A stretch of DNA of 64,000 nt, from NCBI GenBank assembly GCA_902622515.1, contig CACNQE010000008.1, positions 15,509-79,508 of the forward strand. Direction: 5' to 3'. Shown here piece after piece: positions 38,126 to 48,148 of the stretch (within the stretch, counting starts at the first letter, position 1; each line of letters starts with the position of its first letter). The position numbers and the translations under genes are program-made. This DNA comes from an uncultured SAR116 cluster alpha proteobacterium (lineage in GTDB: Bacteria; Pseudomonadota; Alphaproteobacteria; Puniceispirillales; Puniceispirillaceae). Under the pieces are notes generated by a model, which did no database searches, was not told the origin of the DNA, and saw nothing but the letters and a program-made list of their open reading frames with translations.

Positions 38126-39793
38126 ATGAGTGATATAGAAATTGCCCGTAGTGCAACTTTAAAGCCGATTTCCGAGATTGCGGATAGTCTTAATATACCA
38201 AGTAAAGTAGTGATGCCCTTAGGTTATGACAAAGCGAAATTGAACCTTGAATGGTTAGATGAGCAACCTAAGAAGGATGATTCTAAACTTATATTGGTTA
38301 CTGCAATAAATCCTACACCTGCTGGCGAAGGTAAAACCACGACGTCTGTAGGACTAGGAGATGGTTTAAACCGAATTGGGAAAAAAGCAATTATCTGCCT
38401 TCGTGAACCTTCTCTTGGTCCCTGTTTTGGTATGAAAGGGGGCGCTGCAGGGGGTGGTTATTCTCAAGTTGTGCCAATGGAGGATATTAACCTGCATTTT
38501 ACGGGGGACTTTCATGCTATTACTTCTGCCCATAATTTACTCTCAGCTATGATTGATAATCATATTTATTGGGGAAATGAGCTAAATATTGATATTAGAA
38601 GAATTGCGTGGCGGCGCGTAATTGATATGAATGACCGAGCATTGAGGATGAATACAATATCTCTTGGCGGCATTGCAAATGGATTCCCAAGGGAATCTGG
38701 ATTTGATATTACTGTAGCTTCTGAGATTATGGCTATTTTGTGCCTTTCGAATGACCTTAAGGATCTAAGGCTGAGACTAGGTAATATAATAATTGGATAT
38801 CGCCGTGATAAATCTGCCGTTTATTGCAGGGATATCAGGGCAGATGGCGCAATGACAGTGCTACTAAAAAATGCTTTGCAGCCAAATTTAGTTCAAACAT
38901 TAGAATCAAATCCCGCTCTCATCCATGGTGGACCCTTTGCAAATATTGCACATGGATGTAATTCTGTCATTGCAACAAAAGCTGCACTAAAGTTGGTAGA
39001 TTATGTTGTCACTGAGGCTGGTTTTGGTGCCGACTTAGGAGCAGAGAAATTCTTTGATATAAAATGTCGCAAATCTGGATTGACTCCATCTTGCGTTGTC
39101 CTTGTAGCCACTGCAAGAGCTCTTAAAATGAACGGTGGTGTTAGTAAGGAAGATTTAAAAAATGAGAATTTAGATGCGGTTCAGAGGGGGAGTTCTAACC
39201 TTATAAGGCATCTTGAAAATATTCGTAAGTTTGGTGTTCCAGTTGTTGTAGCAATAAACCATTTTTTGACTGACACGAATAATGAAATTGAACTTATAAA
39301 GAAAATTGTCCATAAAGTTGGCGTGCAGGCTGTTGAGTGCAAGCACTGGGCTAACGGTTCAAAAGGAATAGAAGAACTAGCAAAAAAGGTGGTTGAAGTC
39401 TGTGATAATGAAGAGGCAGATTTCAAATATCTTTATACAGATTCAATGCCGCTTATTGAAAAAATAAAAAAGATCGCAACTGAAATATACCATGCAGATG
39501 AGGTTGTAACTGACAAGAAAATTCTGAAACAACTCACTGAATGGGAAGAGAATGGTTTTGGTGATTTACCAGTTTGCATGGCGAAGACACAATATTCTTT
39601 TTCTGCTGATCCGGGGTTGCTCGGTGCACCTGAAGGTCATAGTTTGCCCATACGTGAGGTAAGATTATGTGCTGGCGCAGGATTTATAGTTGTTGTATGT
39701 GGAGATATCATGACTATGCCAGGGCTGCCTCGTGCTCCCGCGGCTGAGATGATAGACATTAGTGATCAAGGGCAGGTTACAGGTCTCTTTTAA
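38126..39793 (+). CDS. fhs: Formate--tetrahydrofolate ligase
   Basis: [53 protein letters not shown] and [10 protein letters not shown]. Confidence 0.95.
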
Positions 39794-39872
39794 TTGAGTT
39801 AATCTAACGAGGCCGATAAATATTAGTTTGCAAGCTAGGTTGATAGTGTTTAGTTTGGTATGTGGTAGTATA

Positions 39873-40700
39873 ATGAGTGATTTATTAAATGATAAGCAGC
39901 AACGCACATTAATAACCTCCGCCAGTAATCAGGAAATAAAAAGATTACGCTCATTGCATGAACGAAAATATCGTAAACAGACGGGCTGGTTTCTAGCAGA
40001 GGGCTTGCGTATCTGCACAGAAGCATTGCAACAGGGTTTTGCTCCAAAAAGACTACTCTATCAGGAAGATCGAAATAGAGATCCCTTGATATCGAACTTA
40101 ATTTCTGCATGTGAGAAGGAAGGTGGCCGTGTACTACCTGTCACTCGCTCATTATTGGTAAAGGTAAGTAATAAAGATAATCCACAAACTGTGATCGGCG
40201 CTTATGCACAATTTACCACAAATTTTTCTAATATTATAAAGGAAAAAATGAGATGTTGGGTAGCACTTGACAGGATACGTGACCCGGGAAATTTAGGTAC
40301 TATCATCCGTACGATAGATGCTGTAGCTGCAGATGGAGTCATTTTAATTGATAATTGTACTGACCCGTTTTCGATTGAGTCTGTGCGAGCCTCAATGGGT
40401 TCTATTTTTAGCCTAAAAATAAGTTATTGCAATACAAATGATTTTCTTGCTTTTAGAAAAAAATTTCCTGGAAAAATAATTGGTACTTCCTTGAAATCTG
40501 ATATTGATTATAAAACTGCAGACTGGAAAAGCCCTTGTGTAATCCTTATGGGAAACGAGCAATCGGGATTATCGGATAAATTAGGTGATGCATGTGACCA
40601 ACTTATAACCATGCCAATGCGTGGCCGGTCTGATAGCTTAAATTTGGCAGTAGCAACAGGGATTTCTTTGTATGAGTTTTTGCGGCATGAAGCTAATTAG
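39873..40700 (+). CDS. TrmH/SpoU-family RNA 2'-O-methyltransferase
   Basis: DRIRDPGNLGTIIRT, ILMGNEQSGLS and ITMPMRGRSDSLNLAVATGISLYE. I chose the start MSDLLND at 39873. The track start at 39828 adds an implausible leader. Confidence 0.8.
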   Translation: MSDLLNDKQQRTLITSASNQEIKRLRSLHERKYRKQTGWFLAEGLRICTEALQQGFAPKRLLYQEDRNRDPLISNLISACEKEGGRVLPVTRSLLVKVSNKDNPQTVIGAYAQFTTNFSNIIKEKMRCWVALDRIRDPGNLGTIIRTIDAVAADGVILIDNCTDPFSIESVRASMGSIFSLKISYCNTNDFLAFRKKFPGKIIGTSLKSDIDYKTADWKSPCVILMGNEQSGLSDKLGDACDQLITMPMRGRSDSLNLAVATGISLYEFLRHEAN

Positions 40701-41810: not shown

Positions 41811-42269
41811 ATGGACAATATAGATAAAAAAATTCTTACCTTATTACAACAAAATTCGACACAGCCTTTAGCAGATATAGCTCGAAAAGTTGGTTTATCA
41901 CTTACACCATGTTGGCGACGGGTTCAAAAGCTTGAGGAAGACGGGATTATAAGAGGTCGTGTAGCATTACTTGATGCAGAACGGTTAGGTTTAGGAATGA
42001 GTGTTTTTGTTGCTATAAAAATAAATGAGCATTCATCAGAATGGCTAAAAAACTTTGCGATAAAAATTTCTGGATATGATGAGGTAGTTGAGTTTTACCG
42101 AATGTCTGGAGATGTAGATTATATGTTGAGAGTTGTTGTTAAAAATATGTCAGCTTATGATCAATTTTATAAAAAGTTAATTTCAGATGTGTCTCTTAAG
42201 GATGTAAGTTCTTCTTTCGCGATGGAGGAGATAAAATATACCACATCTTTACCTATCAATCATTTATAA
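41811..42269 (+). CDS. Lrp/AsnC-family transcriptional regulator
   Basis: DNIDKKILTLLQQNS...LADIARKVGLSLTPCWRRVQKLEEDGII plus an AsnC_trans_reg C-terminal domain. Confidence 0.85.
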   Translation: MDNIDKKILTLLQQNSTQPLADIARKVGLSLTPCWRRVQKLEEDGIIRGRVALLDAERLGLGMSVFVAIKINEHSSEWLKNFAIKISGYDEVVEFYRMSGDVDYMLRVVVKNMSAYDQFYKKLISDVSLKDVSSSFAMEEIKYTTSLPINHL

Positions 42270-42283
42270 ATATTAACTTAAAT

Positions 42284-43294
42284 CTAATTAAGTACTTTAA
42301 TGATATTTAGTAAATTTTCCGTAAAAACCTCTTTTGAAAATCGTTCATCATACACAGCTTGTCTGGCTCTCTGCTGATATTTATTCCTTTCCCTCGGGTT
42401 TTGTATAAGTATTTTCAGACGGTCCACCATCTCGTCGATATTTGATGGTTCAAAAAAAAGTGCATCTTCAATACTTTGACAAATCCATAAAGGGCCATTT
42501 GTGCGTGTTGCTACAATGGCAACACCATATTGCATAATTTCAGGTAGTATATAGCCAAATGGTTCATCAAGAGAGGGAAGACAGAAAATATCTAAAAAGG
42601 GGGCAAATTCTTTAATGTCAATCCAACCTGTAAATCGGACTGGATTGCCTTTGCTTTTTGAGAATGCCAGGAGACTTTTTGATAACGGCCCATCACCAGC
42701 AAGTACAAATTCAACTTCGGGGAATTCTTTGCGAACTCTCGCGGCAGCATCAATGAATGTTTTGAAGCCTTTTTTTTCAACAAACCTTCCTGCAGCTCCT
42801 ATGGTAATCTTTTGACCTATCTTATCGCTGTGAGTAATTTTTTTTTGAGGTTCAAAATAATGAGATAACAGATGAATACTATTTTCACATCTACCAATTT
42901 CTTTCGCTTTTTGAACCGCATTTGGTGTAAGACAAATTAAATTGTCTGCGTAATCAAACTGCTCTGGTTTGTCGTTGTGACAAATACCGATAACACTATC
43001 ACTGTATTTTTTTATACTTCTGCACATGAAGCCATTATGAACAAAAGAAATGTTAAATAATTGATTATTAAAATTATTGACAGAAAACAATAAGTTCCTT
43101 CGGATAAGGGTTTTTTGAAGCCATGACAATTTTATATGATTCGCGTTATCGCCATCTTTGTTTGTATATAAATAATTAGGGGTAAAGTAAAAATTTTCAA
43201 ATTCAGAAAGGGGTGCTAGAGCGGCAACATAGTTTTTATAGGCTTTTTGAATTCCACCTGGCTTGTTATCACTTGTAACATGGAGAATCTTCAT
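42284..43294 (-). CDS. GT4 (group 1) glycosyltransferase
   Basis: GT-B fold signatures: MKILHVT...GG at the N-terminus, and the EX7E-type motif EPFGYILPEIMQYGVAIVATRTNG in the C-terminal half. Confidence 0.8.
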   Translation of the reverse strand: MKILHVTSDNKPGGIQKAYKNYVAALAPLSEFENFYFTPNYLYTNKDGDNANHIKLSWLQKTLIRRNLLFSVNNFNNQLFNISFVHNGFMCRSIKKYSDSVIGICHNDKPEQFDYADNLICLTPNAVQKAKEIGRCENSIHLLSHYFEPQKKITHSDKIGQKITIGAAGRFVEKKGFKTFIDAAARVRKEFPEVEFVLAGDGPLSKSLLAFSKSKGNPVRFTGWIDIKEFAPFLDIFCLPSLDEPFGYILPEIMQYGVAIVATRTNGPLWICQSIEDALFFEPSNIDEMVDRLKILIQNPRERNKYQQRARQAVYDERFSKEVFTENLLNIIKVLN

Positions 43295-43312
43295 AAGCGT
43301 CTCTTTCTTGGT

Positions 43313-44218
43313 TTAAGCATATAACAGTACAATAACAATTGAAATACCAAGGATGCTTATACCAATTAACTCAAGAAGAGTAATTTTTTCTTTTAAAAAA
43401 AGCCACGAAAACAAAATCGATATAATCAACTCAATTTGTCCTATTGCACGCACTGCCCCAAGGTGAAACATTGCAAATGCGTAAAACCATGCTGTAGAGG
43501 AAATAACAGCAGTAATGCCGATAAAAAAACCAATTTTCCAATTTGCGAGGCAAAGCATTAATTGTCCTGGTTCCTTAAAAACAAGGTAGCTTCCGAGAAT
43601 GATTGTTTGCAGTGAAATTGATATTGCCGCTGTAAAACTAGCATTAATAACTAGTAAATCACTATTTAAAAGTATTGTTGCTTTAAAATAAAAAATATTG
43701 GCCAAAGCAAGAGCAGCTCCAGCACCGATACCCAAGAAATGGTGGGGGGAAAAGAATAAATGACTTTTAACACCATTTTTAAACTCAATTTTTTGATAGC
43801 TTAAAAGAGCAACACCAATTAGTCCCATTGCGATCGCTCCTATAATCGAAAAGCTTGCTATATAACCAATTATTATAGCTTCTAATATAGCAGTCTGAAG
43901 AATCTCTGTTTTTGAAAGAGCAATACCAATAGCGTAGTTACGATAATTGAACATCATGATCAACAAAATCGTAAATATAATTTGAAGAATTCCAGCTAGC
44001 CCAACAAAAGCAATAAATAAAAAGGATATATTTGGCAACCTATTGCCAGTCATTAAGCAAATTGTAAAGACCCAGAGCCAAGTAAAGGTAATACCGTAGA
44101 TGAAGCGGCTAAAACTTGCACCCAACTCACCTACATGAGGGATTAATAATTTTTGACACACAGTTCGCAACGATTGGGCAATTGCTGCGATTATTGCTAT
44201 GACGGCCCATAATTCCAT
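43313..44218 (-). CDS. EamA/DMT-superfamily transporter
   Basis: Ten predicted TM helices in two similar halves, of EamA-type size (301 aa). Substrate unknown. Confidence 0.7.
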   Translation of the reverse strand: MELWAVIAIIAAIAQSLRTVCQKLLIPHVGELGASFSRFIYGITFTWLWVFTICLMTGNRLPNISFLFIAFVGLAGILQIIFTILLIMMFNYRNYAIGIALSKTEILQTAILEAIIIGYIASFSIIGAIAMGLIGVALLSYQKIEFKNGVKSHLFFSPHHFLGIGAGAALALANIFYFKATILLNSDLLVINASFTAAISISLQTIILGSYLVFKEPGQLMLCLANWKIGFFIGITAVISSTAWFYAFAMFHLGAVRAIGQIELIISILFSWLFLKEKITLLELIGISILGISIVIVLLYA

Positions 44219-44272
44219 TAAGAATTTTTAGTTCATCAATCTTAATAAATCTAGGATTTAGTTTTATGCTTA

Positions 44273-44860
44273 TTAGGTATCATTTTTTGGACTTACTGCC
44301 ACTTCACTTAGATCAAGAACTTTATTTTTTCTCTCTATTTTATGCCCTATTATATCTTGAATAACGTTATCTAACTTTTGCGAGACAACCTGGTTCAATA
44401 GAAGTTCAATAAATTGTTTTGTTTCAGATGATAAAACAAATTCAGAATTAACCCCCTTGTTATTTTGAGGACTGGAGAAAGTTTTTATTTTCTGTGTGTC
44501 ATTTTTCGATATATCTTCTTTTGCATTGGAAATAGCGGATCTAATATCACTTAATAAGGTATTTACTTTTTCTGGCTCTGTTTTGTCAAATTTGGAAATT
44601 ATTACGCTTTTACCCTCTATTTTTTCTTTTAATAAAGCGATTTCAGCATCTTTAAGGTATAATTTAAGTTTATTAATCTGGTTAATAATCGCTATATTTG
44701 GCTCAAGATCTTCCAAGGTTTTCGTTTGAGACAACAAATCATTGTTTTGTTTTTTAGGTAGTTTTTGGTTTATAACTGTTGCATCTGAAACCAGAGCTTC
44801 GATTGAAGCAATTTTTCTCAAACTTTTTAAATTTTTAAATATTTGTTCCTGGTTGGTCAT
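44273..44860 (-). CDS. Soluble K/N/E-rich protein with coiled-coil character; possible divergent PopZ (DUF2497-like)
   Basis: The N-terminal helix EQIFKNLKSLRKIASIE resembles the PopZ MEEILASIRRIISED motif. The C-terminal FIELLLNQVVSQKLDNVIQDIIGHKIERK resembles the PopZ/DUF2497 motif VRELLRPLLKEWLD.NLP.IVE..V.EE..RI. There is no TM helix or signal peptide. That it is coding is likely; the functional call is tentative. Confidence 0.4.
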   Translation of the reverse strand: MTNQEQIFKNLKSLRKIASIEALVSDATVINQKLPKKQNNDLLSQTKTLEDLEPNIAIINQINKLKLYLKDAEIALLKEKIEGKSVIISKFDKTEPEKVNTLLSDIRSAISNAKEDISKNDTQKIKTFSSPQNNKGVNSEFVLSSETKQFIELLLNQVVSQKLDNVIQDIIGHKIERKNKVLDLSEVAVSPKNDT

Positions 44861-45025
44861 AATTTTGTCTCTATAAAATATATTTCAATAATAATATTAT
44901 TAACTATATTTGACTAGGTAAAAATTTGTTATTTTATGAGATAGTTCTCTCTCGTTGTTAATGAGATATTGTTGACTTATAACTTCGCTAAGAATTTTAA
45001 GCAAACGTGATAAACAGGAGTATCT

Positions 45026-47128
45026 ATGTCGTTTATATCTATGATTGTTAAGTGGCATGAAAAATTGTTCCAAAATGGCCTATTTACTCAAAAAGCTACT
45101 TCATTGACTGTGACTTTCGCAATTATTCTAGGTATTATAGCCACATATATGAATTTTCAGGCTAGGCAAATTAATTGGCATTTGTGGGAACAAAATAAAG
45201 AAGAATTTTTTTATAAAGATACTCCACTATTTACAACAATGGATGCAGGTTATTTTTTGGGTATAGCTGGTTATCTTAAATCTGAAAAAACAATGGATGA
45301 ATATCAATCGCTGCGTGTATTTCCTAAAAATCAAATTAATGAAAAACAGCAAAATTCTTCCAAGCTATCCGCTCCTTTATTGTCAAAACTGATTGCTTAT
45401 TTTGCAAAAGATACAAGTCCGCAAGCATTGTTAACAGTGGGTAATAAAATGCTCCCTTACACTGCAGCCATCACAGCAATTTCTATTTTTATAGCATTTG
45501 GCGTAACAGGATATTGGATGGAGGGGTCGGTTGCAGCTGCTGGAGGTGGTTTATCAATAGCATATTATTGGCGTTCAGCTATCGGCAGAATAGATACGGA
45601 TCAATTAAACCTCGGAATGATGTATTTTATGTTCGCAATGGTTTTGTGTGCTGGGAAATCGAAGCAATTAAAATGGGGTATCCTCTTCACACTTTTAGCT
45701 GGATTGTCAGCGAGGTTATTTATGGCTTGGTATGGTAAATCAGAACTTATAATAATGGCATCAATATGCCTATGTTGGCTACTTATAATAAACACAAGAG
45801 ATTGGCGCAGTGTTATTGGGTGTTTGTTTGTCTTTATTCTAGTGTCAGGCGTTGAAGTTATTAATCCTTTTGATTCAGATTATCTTAAAACGAATTTAGT
45901 TTCACATGAATTTATTTTCAATAATGTATTGTCCACGGTGACGGAAATTTCAAAGACATCATTTTCTGAAATATTATATCGAATGACGGGTTCCGTTTTT
46001 GTGGGTAGTTTTTGTCTGTTTGGTATGATTTTTTGGGCAATTAGACATCCGAGTTTAGCGGTAGCATATGCGCCTCTTGCTGGCTTTGCAATATTTTCAG
46101 TAATATTAGGAAACCGAGCATTGTTTTATTCAGCTCCTTTTTTCTGGTTTGGAGGTGCTTATATTGTTGTATTGGCTACAAAATCCATAGCCTTTTTATT
46201 TTTATCTAGGTTTGAAGACTCCAGACAAATAGTAAGTACCTTGGCATCTTCGGTTGCCTGCTCTATTTTGTTAGTTTTTATATGGATTCAGGGCCCTGTT
46301 AATCAGTTAGCAAAACCATCAATTCCCTCTCCCATAATTAAAGCAATGGCTGAATTAAAGTTTATAGCAGGTCAAGAAAAGAGTGTTTTAGCAAGTTGGT
46401 GGGACTATGGGTATGCTTCAATGCTTATGAATGGAATACCAACATTTACAGATCCCGGAACACACCGTAGTAATTCCAATTACTTTATTGCTGACGTATT
46501 GCTATCAAATAACCAGAATTATTCTGCAGATACGCTCAGATTTCTCGCGAGAGGCGGATTAATAAATTTGAAAATACCCATCGAAAACAGAGCAGAACTA
46601 ACAAAGATTATGTTTTCAGAAAGAAATAAGGAGGCTCCAACAGTTTATCTTATGCTAACAAACCAAATGACTGATTGGATGCCATCTATCTCAAAAATCG
46701 GAAGGTGGGATATAGATTTGGGCGTTCCTATATTAGCAAAGGGTCATAAACCTGGACAGCAATTAGCGTATAATTTTTTAAATTGTGTAGATACAGAAAT
46801 ACCAGGAAAATTTAGATGCAATAACACAATTATTGATCTCAAAGAAGGAAAAATAAATGGAAACGCTGTTCTAAATTTAGTGGCTGAAGCCCATGGAGGA
46901 AAACTTATTGGAAGTAGGGTTTTTGACCAGAACCAATTGAATATGTTTCAAATTATGAAAGATGAAAATGGAAAATCAGCAAAAGTAGCTGTCCTTCATA
47001 AAGACCTATTTTTTAGCAGTTTTAATCAGATGTTTCATCTAGGGAGATTTGACTCAAAAAATTTTAAATTAGTTTATGATGGATACCCCCATGTTCGAAT
47101 ATTCAAATTATTGCCTGTATCCAAATAG
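45026..47128 (+). CDS. STT3/PglB-family oligosaccharyltransferase (GT-C, 700 aa)
   Basis: About 13 TM helices plus a ~240-aa periplasmic domain. Motifs: TTMDAGYF (EL1 Asp, nt 45242-45244), GRIDTDQL (DxD, nt 45593-45601), STVTEIS (TIXE-type EL5 motif, nt 45935-45946), NRALFYSAP (conserved Arg), WWDYGY (aa 458-463, nt 46397-46414) and TVYLMLTNQMTDWMPSI (MxxI-type motif, nt 46679-46690). The spacing closely matches Campylobacter PglB. Confidence 0.8.
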   Translation: MSFISMIVKWHEKLFQNGLFTQKATSLTVTFAIILGIIATYMNFQARQINWHLWEQNKEEFFYKDTPLFTTMDAGYFLGIAGYLKSEKTMDEYQSLRVFPKNQINEKQQNSSKLSAPLLSKLIAYFAKDTSPQALLTVGNKMLPYTAAITAISIFIAFGVTGYWMEGSVAAAGGGLSIAYYWRSAIGRIDTDQLNLGMMYFMFAMVLCAGKSKQLKWGILFTLLAGLSARLFMAWYGKSELIIMASICLCWLLIINTRDWRSVIGCLFVFILVSGVEVINPFDSDYLKTNLVSHEFIFNNVLSTVTEISKTSFSEILYRMTGSVFVGSFCLFGMIFWAIRHPSLAVAYAPLAGFAIFSVILGNRALFYSAPFFWFGGAYIVVLATKSIAFLFLSRFEDSRQIVSTLASSVACSILLVFIWIQGPVNQLAKPSIPSPIIKAMAELKFIAGQEKSVLASWWDYGYASMLMNGIPTFTDPGTHRSNSNYFIADVLLSNNQNYSADTLRFLARGGLINLKIPIENRAELTKIMFSERNKEAPTVYLMLTNQMTDWMPSISKIGRWDIDLGVPILAKGHKPGQQLAYNFLNCVDTEIPGKFRCNNTIIDLKEGKINGNAVLNLVAEAHGGKLIGSRVFDQNQLNMFQIMKDENGKSAKVAVLHKDLFFSSFNQMFHLGRFDSKNFKLVYDGYPHVRIFKLLPVSK

Positions 47129-47233
47129 ATAAAAATCTTACTATTGCATTTATTTGGTGATTTTAGTGTGTTCAATATAAATGTTAGGATATAGGTATCG
47201 ATTACCTTTAGCAGGATGTATGATAATAAAAAT

Positions 47234-47310
47234 GGCCCCGTAGCTCATCAGGATAGAGCGCGAGATTCCTAATCTCGAGGCAACAGGTTCGAGTCCTGTC
47301 GGGGTCACCA
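47234..47310 (+). tRNA. tRNA-Arg (anticodon CCT), CCA encoded
   Basis: The hand-folded cloverleaf is GGCCCCG-TA-GCTC-ATCAGGATA-GAGC-G-CGAGA-TTCCTAA-TCTCG-AGGCA-ACAGG-TTCGAGT-CCTGT-CGGGGTC-A-CCA, 77 nt. All stems pair, with one G-U pair in the acceptor stem. Confidence 0.9.
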
Positions 47311-47341: not shown

Positions 47342-48148
47342 TTATTTTGAGGTTGGAATAAAAACTTTTTGTCCGTCTATGTTGAACAGTCCTATTGTTT
47401 TTTGTCCTTTATATGAAGTGAGCCAGTTGATGAATGATTGACCCTCTGCAGATTTTACACTTGGGCATTTATTTTTATCGATAAGCATAACGCCATAAGG
47501 ATTGAATAAATGGCTATCCCCCTCGAGCAAAACGCCATGATCATATTTGTTAGAAAATGAGTACCAACTAGCTCTATCAACAAGCGTATATGAATTAGTA
47601 TCAATCGTAATATTTAGTGTTTTTCCCATGCCAGAGCCGGTCTCAAGATACCATTTACCAGACTCATTTACTGGATCTAAACCAATTTTCTTCCATATTG
47701 AAAGCTCCTTGGTGTGCGTGCCTGAGCCATCGCTTCTTGATGCAAATTTTGCACCTGAGGTAGCTATTTTAGCAAATGCTAAACCGACATCTTGCATTCC
47801 AGAAATGCCAGCTGGATCTGCAACTGGACCAACTATAACAAAGTCATTATGCATAATATTATAGCGTTTTCTTGAGAAACCATCTGCAATAAACTTTTGT
47901 TCATCTTCTGGACTATGCACGAGCAGAACGTCACCGTCACAATTGCGAGCATTTTTTATTGCTGCACCCGTTCCAACAGCAACTACGTTAACCTTTATCC
48001 CTGAGTCCGCCGTGAAAAGTGGAAGAATAAAATCATAGAAGCCAGAATTTTTGGTTGAAGTTGTTGATTGAACTAATATGGATTTATCCGAAGCTGATAA
48101 AACTGTTGGTATTAAAATCAATAGAATAAGGTAAGCGATTAAATTCAT
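47342..48148 (-). CDS. Periplasmic oxyanion-binding protein, TupA-like (tungstate/molybdate-type PBP), orphan
   Basis: Signal peptide, then ILVQSTTSTKNSGFYDFILPLF and VVAVGTGAAIKNARNCDGDVLLVHSP, resembling the TupA TTTS...G anion-binding motif. No permease or ATPase gene is adjacent. Confidence 0.6.
   Translation of the reverse strand: MNLIAYLILLILIPTVLSASDKSILVQSTTSTKNSGFYDFILPLFTADSGIKVNVVAVGTGAAIKNARNCDGDVLLVHSPEDEQKFIADGFSRKRYNIMHNDFVIVGPVADPAGISGMQDVGLAFAKIATSGAKFASRSDGSGTHTKELSIWKKIGLDPVNESGKWYLETGSGMGKTLNITIDTNSYTLVDRASWYSFSNKYDHGVLLEGDSHLFNPYGVMLIDKNKCPSVKSAEGQSFINWLTSYKGQKTIGLFNIDGQKVFIPTSK

Follow-up and report, generated by a model that had tools for sequence, protein, structure and literature searches.

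The stretch of DNA considered here, called the window throughout, comprises 64,000 nucleotides from the genome of an uncultured SAR116 alphaproteobacterium (G000), a member of a low-GC genus of the Puniceispirillaceae (SAR116). The assembly has 39 contigs, a length of 2.11 Mb and a G+C content of 37.1%, and the window lies on its contig C8. Our subject is a block of four genes in this window that includes a gene for a PglB-type oligosaccharyltransferase (OST) and adjoins a tRNA-Arg gene. A sequence-only reading had taken the block for a possible horizontally acquired glycosylation island. We compared the locus with 41 relatives, nine of them congeners (G001 to G009), and find it to be better described as a rearranged native locus whose OST gene is a hypervariable, recombining allele. 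All genomes of the genus are metagenome-assembled genomes (MAGs) or metagenome contigs. Below, g1 denotes the genus of G000, f1 its family and f2, f3 and f4 other families; plain coordinates are window positions, and those prefixed with C are positions on G000 contigs. The features of the locus are as follows.

41811-42269, plus strand: Lrp/AsnC-family regulator (PF01037 and PF13412), conserved left flank, outside the block
42284-43294, minus strand: GT4-family glycosyltransferase (GT-B fold, retaining; PF00534, E = 1.3e-27)
43313-44218, minus strand: EamA/DMT transporter with 10 transmembrane (TM) segments (PF00892 above cut-off in two stretches)
44273-44860, minus strand: orf195, soluble all-helical protein of 195 amino acids, rich in K, N and E, with no Pfam or NCBIfam family
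44861-45025, no strand: divergent intergenic spacer of 165 bp, AT-rich (23.6% G+C)
45026-47128, plus strand: PglB/STT3-like OST of 700 amino acids with a GT-C fold (PF21436)
44450-47100 (approximate), no strand: mosaic recombining tract covering the 5' half of orf195 and nearly the whole OST
47234-47310, plus strand: tRNA-Arg(CCT) (ARAGORN), single copy in the genome, conserved right boundary
47342-48148, minus strand: TupA-like periplasmic binding protein (NF041772, 1.5e-59, below cut-off), conserved right flank

Open reading frame (ORF) calls and Pfam matches agree with the gene order, the coordinates and the GT4, EamA and OST family assignments of the sequence-only reading. The divergent arrangement of the OST likewise holds, across a spacer of 165 bp rather than the 166 bp reported, and the end of the OST is indeed separated by 105 nt from tRNA-Arg(CCT), the sole tRNA of the window. 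The tRNA is 97-100% identical within the genus and the spacer 91-93% conserved in sister species, where the encoded proteins share 96-97% (Lrp), 92-93% (GT4) and 91-96% (TupA-like) of their amino acids. The spacer presumably carries the promoters of both divergent units; promoter sites within it were no more frequent than expected by chance, and a terminator scan likewise stayed at the level of chance. Against NCBIfam, the block gave sub-threshold matches only, with every equivalog model far under its cut-off for the GT4. The EamA protein belongs to the DMT family by its length of ~300 amino acids, its ~10 TM segments and its two EamA repeats (PF00892, 47.4 bits against a cut-off of 28.2).

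The OST itself is, as far as a predicted structure can tell, a member of the PglB/STT3/AglB family (CAZy GT66), of PglB type, rather than an equivalog of the Campylobacter enzyme, to which it is ~18% identical in structural alignment. The STT3-PglB core model PF21436 recognises it with 44.3 bits (cut-off 23), the TM domain was matched by no Pfam model, and with 76.7 bits the protein stays far below the cut-off of 1300 for the NCBIfam PglB equivalog NF050801. The AlphaFold2 model (pLDDT 84.4, pTM 0.83) combines a multi-pass TM domain with a mixed alpha/beta periplasmic domain; Foldseek aligns it to the PglB structures 5ogl, 6gxc and 3rce with TM-scores of 0.70-0.74 (E ~5e-23) and to eukaryotic STT3 and archaeal AglB at ~0.55. 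In phmmer alignment with C. lari PglB (3RCE), D73 corresponds to D56, D190 and D192 of an IDTD motif to D154 and D156, and E307 (in TVTE) to E319 (in TIxE). R319 corresponds to R331, which reads the acidic residue at position -2 of the sequon, and follows E307 by 12 residues just as R331 follows E319; R364 corresponds to R375. The WWDYG motif occupies residues 458-462, and the C-terminal motif reads FNQMFHLG. Across an alignment of 37 family members WWDYG, D73, D190/D192 and E307 are invariant, with R319 the majority residue but not invariant. By these motifs the OST looks catalytically complete.

With the C. lari and C. jejuni enzymes the protein thus shares the single-subunit GT-C architecture, the length of ~700 amino acids, WWDYG, the equivalents of the catalytic residues, the F-x-Q-[LM]-F-x-LG motif and the fold. 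It differs from them in its low identity and equivalog score, in its allelic hypervariability, in lying outside any pgl cluster, with no PglC-type transferase in the genome and no adjacent PglK, and in its host, an alphaproteobacterium of the SAR116 clade rather than a member of the Campylobacterota or Desulfobacterota. PglB-type N-glycosylation is textbook knowledge for Campylobacterota and some Desulfobacterota, and in the literature library searched we saw no work that connects it with SAR116 or with Alphaproteobacteria. Members of the family are named 'hypothetical' in NCBI records and dolichyl-diphosphooligosaccharide-protein glycosyltransferase by JGI; the search brought up no publication about them.

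Could the block have come from outside? One possibility is that the whole 5-kb segment is an old island from beyond the lineage, inserted by tRNA-Arg(CCT) and since deprived of its mobility genes. Base composition offers such an origin little comfort. Taken over all its 5-kb windows, the genome averages 37.1 +/- 2.2% G+C, and the 34.0% of the block puts it at the 7th percentile (z = -1.4); the AT-richness proposed earlier is therefore real but was overstated, and the 40-45% G+C ascribed to the flanks holds for a few of their 1-kb windows, most of which lie at 36-40%. The GT4 (35.0%), EamA (34.9%) and OST (35.0%) genes exceed the Lrp gene outside the block (33.1%), whereas orf195 (29.4%) and the spacer (23.6%) fall below it. 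At synonymous sites the three larger genes are typical of the genome: against 1645 long ORFs, their G+C content at third codon positions (GC3) falls at the 46th (GT4), 61st (EamA) and 39th (OST) percentiles, and their codon bias, by the Karlin measure with length-matched percentiles, at the 50th to 63rd. Only orf195 stands apart, at the 0.8th percentile for overall G+C and the 9th for GC3. Because synonymous sites are typical, the dip is attributable to amino-acid composition, the block encoding membrane proteins and one protein rich in K and N, together with the AT-rich spacer, rather than to a foreign mutational signature. In GC3 the Lrp gene (41811-42269) ranks lowest of the neighbourhood, at the 2.5th genome percentile, yet this gene is 96-97% conserved in sister species.

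Signs of mobility are equally wanting at the locus. Of the nine matches to the integrase domain PF00589 in the genome, none falls on contig C8, and neither Pfam nor NCBIfam detects an integrase in the block or its flanking genes. No 11-mer of tRNA-Arg(CCT) recurs within the 64-kb window (about one does in shuffled sequences), no match of 14-22 nt with one to three mismatches was found there, and a repeat search of the window returned no significant repeat family. The lack of integrase, transposase and tRNA-derived direct repeat that the sequence-only reading had itself conceded is thereby upheld, and the window holds no att remnant of the tRNA 3' end. The block resembles tRNA-targeted integrative islands in its lineage-specific gene order and in its place beside a tRNA gene, at the 5' side. 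Unlike them, it lacks both an integrase and an att repeat, its codon usage does not deviate, and all assembled congeners have it.

Elsewhere in the genome, at C11:38817-46136, a tyrosine-recombinase gene (39482-39943) that contains one TAA internally comes after tRNA-Arg(ACG), and farther on an integrase remnant (43123-43203) precedes tRNA-Arg(TCG). Unlike the OST block, C11:38.8-43.2 kb is a real candidate for a tRNA-integrated element.

Within the genus the block is a fixed feature. A colinear run of 12 genes, FTHFS-SpoU-MTase-Lrp-GT4-EamA-orf195-OST-(tRNA-Arg)-TupA-GS-agmatinase-DAO, is found in G001-G005 and G007, in G006 (over three contigs) and in two metagenome contigs of 76 kb and 681 kb. 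The suggestion that 42.3-47.1 kb might be variably present is not borne out: the block occurs in every congener in which the region is assembled. In G008 the OST, EamA and orf195 are apparently missing; we rejected true absence, as the region falls into an assembly gap, contig C47 of that genome starting within the MTase gene and C42 ending 98 bp past tRNA-Arg. The region is at contig ends in both G008 and G009. A pseudogenised OST in G007, a pilon-polished long-read MAG, was also rejected: frameshifts and stops at G007:C8:350500-361286 affect FTHFS and GT4 as well as the OST and are most likely indel errors.

The history of the individual genes can be read from the relatives. An OST is present in 29 of the 41: in eight of the nine congeners, in 20 of 24 members of the family, in three of six and five of five members of two sister families, and in none of five members of a third family. 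A maximum-likelihood tree separates the OSTs of f3, f2 and f1 and places genus g1 as a monophyletic group (support 100) inside f1. On this evidence the OST is native to the order and probably vertically inherited, because its tree follows the families of the order. Three genera of f1 and both sister families, f2 and f3, share a common context for the gene, SLT-UDG-ETFQO-TPR-IspE-OST-tRNA-Gln(TTG)-response regulator-RibA-like-YggS-...-LptE-LeuRS, which we regard as ancestral. Within f1 the genera with this context form one clade (98), and the relocated copies all fall in its sister clade (97). In G000 the ancestral neighbourhood is intact and empty of the OST: between the end of ispE and the start of the response regulator (C6:71516-71829) lies only tRNA-Gln(TTG), which starts 98 bp past ispE. 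Because the ispE/tRNA-Gln site that holds the OST in three families is thus intact but vacant in G000, the gene has been relocated within the lineage, most simply once. In both contexts, with tRNA-Gln ancestrally and tRNA-Arg after relocation, the OST stands directly 5' of a co-directional tRNA gene, a coincidence that may exceed chance.

The neighbours have histories of their own. Orthologues of EamA (35-44% identity) occur in 36 of the 41 relatives, including all five members of the OST-less family f4 and all three of genus g14, and usually lie hundreds of kilobases from the OST (290 kb in G014), with distances below 5 kb only in g1, g4 and g5; EamA is, by this distribution, a core gene of the order. 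Full-length orthologues of the GT4 (33-37% identity) are confined to g7, g10 and g12, where they do not adjoin the OST. The conserved neighbour of the OST in six other genera with the relocated gene is an NAD-dependent sugar epimerase, and in G010 the OST adjoins a Wzy_C-like protein. In the four-gene block, then, genes of the lineage stand side by side in an arrangement specific to this genus.

These observations together leave the foreign island very unlikely, and it is already largely refuted. The slight AT-richness, the abutting tRNA, the gene order found only in g1 and the position of the OST away from its ancestral site would all be expected of an island. Genome-typical GC3 and codon bias, the missing integrase and att-like repeat, the presence of the block in every assembled congener and the still lower G+C of the flanking Lrp gene speak against it, as do the OST tree, which tracks the families and nests the genus within its own, the EamA orthologues across the order and the GT4 orthologues in genera closest by the OST tree. 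The horizontally acquired tRNA island of the sequence-only reading can accordingly be set aside, in view of both typical synonymous composition and colinearity in all assembled congeners. What survives of the horizontal arrival proposed for the OST is movement to its present site within the lineage and allelic exchange within the genus. That the block is a rearranged, genus-specific set of native Puniceispirillaceae (SAR116) genes rather than a foreign island is one component of the overall explanation that we weigh below.

The second component concerns the extraordinary divergence of the OST between close relatives. Across the whole window we compared 60 orthologous ORF pairs of G000 and its sister species G005. 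Amino-acid identity has a median of 95.5%, against 72.7% for the OST and 84.1% for orf195; synonymous divergence (dS) a median of 0.19, against 0.95 and 0.39; and nonsynonymous divergence (dN) a median of 0.020, against 0.172 for the OST, whose dN/dS is 0.18. No other gene falls below 89.7% amino-acid identity or exceeds a dS of 0.31, leaving the OST as an extreme outlier with orf195 second. At the nucleotide level, G000 is 91-96% identical to G004, G005 and G007 in the flanking genes and 77-86% in the OST, where identity ranges from 65 to 96% per 150 bp. Among five species all pairs have OST identities of 68-77%, irrespective of flank identity, which is 93% in some pairs and 75% in others; between G003 and G001, for instance, the flanks are 92.8% identical, the OST 72.0% and orf195 60.7%. 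The variable stretches in these five species are loops and the periplasmic domain, and the catalytic segments are conserved. Clustered at 90%, the versions of the gene in public data fall into at least 21 groups with 60-97% identity to the query, many of which come from contigs of 2-5 kb. In family f3, with the ancestral context, OST divergence matches that of its neighbours, although no f3 pair is as close as the g1 pairs.

Could the gene simply have evolved fast in place, under positive or relaxed selection or in a local mutational hot spot? A dN about eight times the window median would fit, and so would the concentration of variation in loops and periplasmic domain with conserved catalytic bins. 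However, dS is also five times the median and dN/dS an ordinary 0.18, divergence is flat at 68-77% regardless of species distance, and patches of 90-96% identity stand beside patches of 60-70%. The nearest allele shifts along the gene, and the pairwise homoplasy test detects recombination among seven alleles (PHI p = 0.002). The OST tree conflicts with that of the flanks: the flanks unite G000, G004, G005 and G007 (100/100) and pair G003 with G001 (100/100), whereas in the OST tree G005 lies outside a clade of G000, G004, G003 and G001 (98/98). Forcing G000, G004 and G005 together makes the OST tree 31 log-likelihood units worse, with p = 0.04 in the approximately unbiased (AU) test, a marginal value for a group chosen after the trees had been seen. 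We consider fast evolution in place quite unlikely. Raised dS with an ordinary dN/dS points instead to old alleles swapped by homologous recombination, and horizontal exchange as homologous allelic replacement of the OST does occur within the genus.

Metagenome assembly could also generate apparent hypervariability, through strain chimeras or a collapsed paralogue, and the MAG origin of all genus members, the frameshifts in three genes of the region in G007 and the frequent occurrence of contig ends at or close to the OST (three congener assemblies, G006, G008 and G009, are broken within the block) lend this some substance. Yet the pattern recurs in at least eight independent assemblies from different projects, with contigs of 213 kb, 361 kb and 681 kb spanning the locus, and there is a single OST copy per genome. 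On one metagenome contig, with flanks at 95-98%, the OST is 90.6% identical and drops to 78-86% in patches. Another metagenome contig, nearly clonal, has its OST at 97.8% and its flanks at 98%, and the locus is therefore assembled consistently when the populations are the same. Artefact as the source of the divergence is in our view highly unlikely.

Recombining alleles at a fixed site have a counterpart in other marine bacteria. Replacement-type flexible 'glycotype' islands, a concept of Rodriguez-Valera, Lopez-Perez and colleagues, are reportedly found in Alteromonas, SAR11 and Prochlorococcus. The OST locus has the defining traits of a replacement-type flexible locus, namely a fixed position, conserved flanks, deeply divergent versions and evidence of recombination, and further resembles the marine islands in its envelope-glycan function and its assembly breaks. 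It differs in consisting of one orthologous gene (~2.6 kb) with mosaic alleles instead of a multi-gene, non-homologous cassette.

The 5' half of orf195 shares in this variability, and the protein had been labelled 'PopZ-like'. That label finds no support: three orthologues of orf195 gave no Pfam match at E <= 10, and no genome of the genus has a match to DUF2497 (PF10691) at E <= 0.1. Profile alignment (hhalign) of orf195 with the DUF2497 proteins of f3 yields E = 0.0019 with a probability of 14%, over the C-terminal 40 columns only. We therefore rejected an identification of orf195 as PopZ, given the negative Pfam result and the weak hhalign match. Homologues were detected only in genus g1, and the AlphaFold2 model is all-helical with low confidence (pLDDT 49). 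Both G013 and G037 carry a PopZ-like gene (weak DUF2497) at its usual site, upstream of valS, where G000 has just a gap of 77 bp (C1:129481-129558). It is possible that orf195 is a very divergent, displaced PopZ analogue.

Where might the glycan for the OST be made? The sequence-only reading had seen in the GT4, the transporter and the OST a minimal glycosylation pathway. The OST retains its place in such a scheme by its apparent catalytic completeness, but the GT4 adjoins it only in genus g1, and the candidate initiator and Wzx-type flippase are encoded elsewhere. The OST is not part of a pgl-type cluster, having beside it a single GT4 and no initiating transferase, flippase or set of several glycosyltransferases. 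At the end of contig C11 (C11:66838-69196), a WecA-like gene (PF00953) overlaps a gene for a Wzy_C-like membrane protein of the O-antigen-ligase/PglL type, a homologue of which is the neighbour of the OST in G010. In G005 the corresponding locus extends further, into RfaE-like genes and a UDP-sugar epimerase, none of them present in the G000 assembly; this epimerase is of the type that adjoins the OST in other genera. The sole Wzx-type candidate (PF01943, C8:97820-99337) lies 35 kb from the OST block and has no homologue in five congeners. It belongs to a region at the contig end (C8:95517-101984, ~16-22 kb past the window) with 28.6-30.8% G+C that also encodes an FkbM methyltransferase, an NAD epimerase and family-less ORFs; G005 has a set of other genes, likewise low in G+C, at the syntenic site. 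C8:95.5-102 kb is a classical replacement-type glycan island.

The role of pathway carrier once suggested for the EamA protein fares less well than its assignment to the EamA/DMT family, which holds. EamA orthologues are present in 12 OST-less relatives, and a dependence of EamA on the OST is on that distribution unlikely. As an OST-dependent flippase EamA is disfavoured, by its orthologues in OST-less lineages and by the existence of a Wzx-type candidate. Comparison with the C. jejuni pgl cluster shows both likeness and difference. In both, the OST is associated with a GT4 glycosyltransferase (compare PglA, PglH and PglJ), and in six sister genera with a nucleotide-sugar 4-epimerase (compare Gne). 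Unlike the pgl cluster, the pathway here is dispersed, with the WecA-like and Wzy_C-like genes on another contig and the Wzx candidate 35 kb away, and the single glycosyltransferase beside the OST is found there only in genus g1.

We propose the following scenario. The OST would be an old, vertically inherited gene of the order that originally stood between ispE and tRNA-Gln(TTG). It would have moved in one subclade of the family, and in genus g1 would thereby have come to lie divergent from orf195-EamA-GT4 and directly upstream of tRNA-Arg(CCT). We infer that the enzyme transfers a pre-assembled undecaprenyl-PP-linked glycan to asparagine in (D/E-X-)N-X-S/T sequons, its likely acceptors being periplasmic and membrane proteins. 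The donor glycan would presumably be built by products of dispersed genes, with the WecA-like initiator next to the Wzy_C-like gene on C11 and soluble glycosyltransferases such as the adjacent GT4, and may be flipped by the Wzx-type protein of the low-GC, strain-specific glycan island that lies on the contig of the block at a distance of 35 kb. Homologous recombination would repeatedly have replaced the OST, together with the 5' half of orf195, whole or patchwise, with the conserved EamA flank and the conserved tRNA-Arg/TupA flank as its anchors. The outcome would be OST alleles as different between sister species as between distant congeners.

Several points weigh against this account. The single-gene ETFQO tree is too poorly resolved to show the genera with the relocated OST as one species clade, and the relocated copy may have spread between genera of the family. 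The phylogenetic conflict depends in part on the marginal, post hoc AU result given above. Some of the mosaicism may be population-composite assembly, the genus being represented by MAGs and metagenome contigs. The position of the PglB MxxI motif reads MTDW in the OST, a further difference from the Campylobacter enzymes, though one assigned by eye and not aligned by HMMER. A PglC-type transferase was not found (no PF02397 match in the G000 genome), and the link between GT4 and OST consists of adjacency in one genus only. With these points taken into account, a native, rearranged locus with a PglB-type OST as a recombining, hypervariable allele remains the best explanation as a whole, and we put its probability at roughly 0.72.

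The reason for the allelic diversity is a further matter. The sister species differ in both the C8 glycan island and the OST allele, which suggests that the OST may co-vary with the donor glycan. A tentative extension, which we hold to be doubtful as it stands, is that the OST alleles are matched to the glycan island, the OST being a replaceable part of the envelope tool-kit whose polymorphism recombination maintains while selection, exerted for example by phage, is frequency-dependent.

The SAR116 clade has brought to light a PglB-type gene that appears to have been inherited vertically across an order of abundant marine bacteria. Its history is readable from an ancestral ispE/tRNA-Gln site, what is most simply one relocation and a donor site left intact and empty. 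The same gene is the most variable of the 64-kb window, with apparently old, mosaic alleles under purifying selection in genomes that also swap a glycan island, and whether its alleles co-vary with the glycan transferred becomes a testable question. If the tentative extension given above is true, N-linked protein glycosylation would exist in a major bacterioplankton lineage outside the Campylobacterota and Desulfobacterota, and abundant marine SAR116 populations would diversify their N-linked glycoproteome. The OST would then constitute a natural allelic series of PglB-type enzymes, perhaps differing in glycan or sequon specificity. For glyco-engineering, the alleles would also provide a natural panel of PglB variants.

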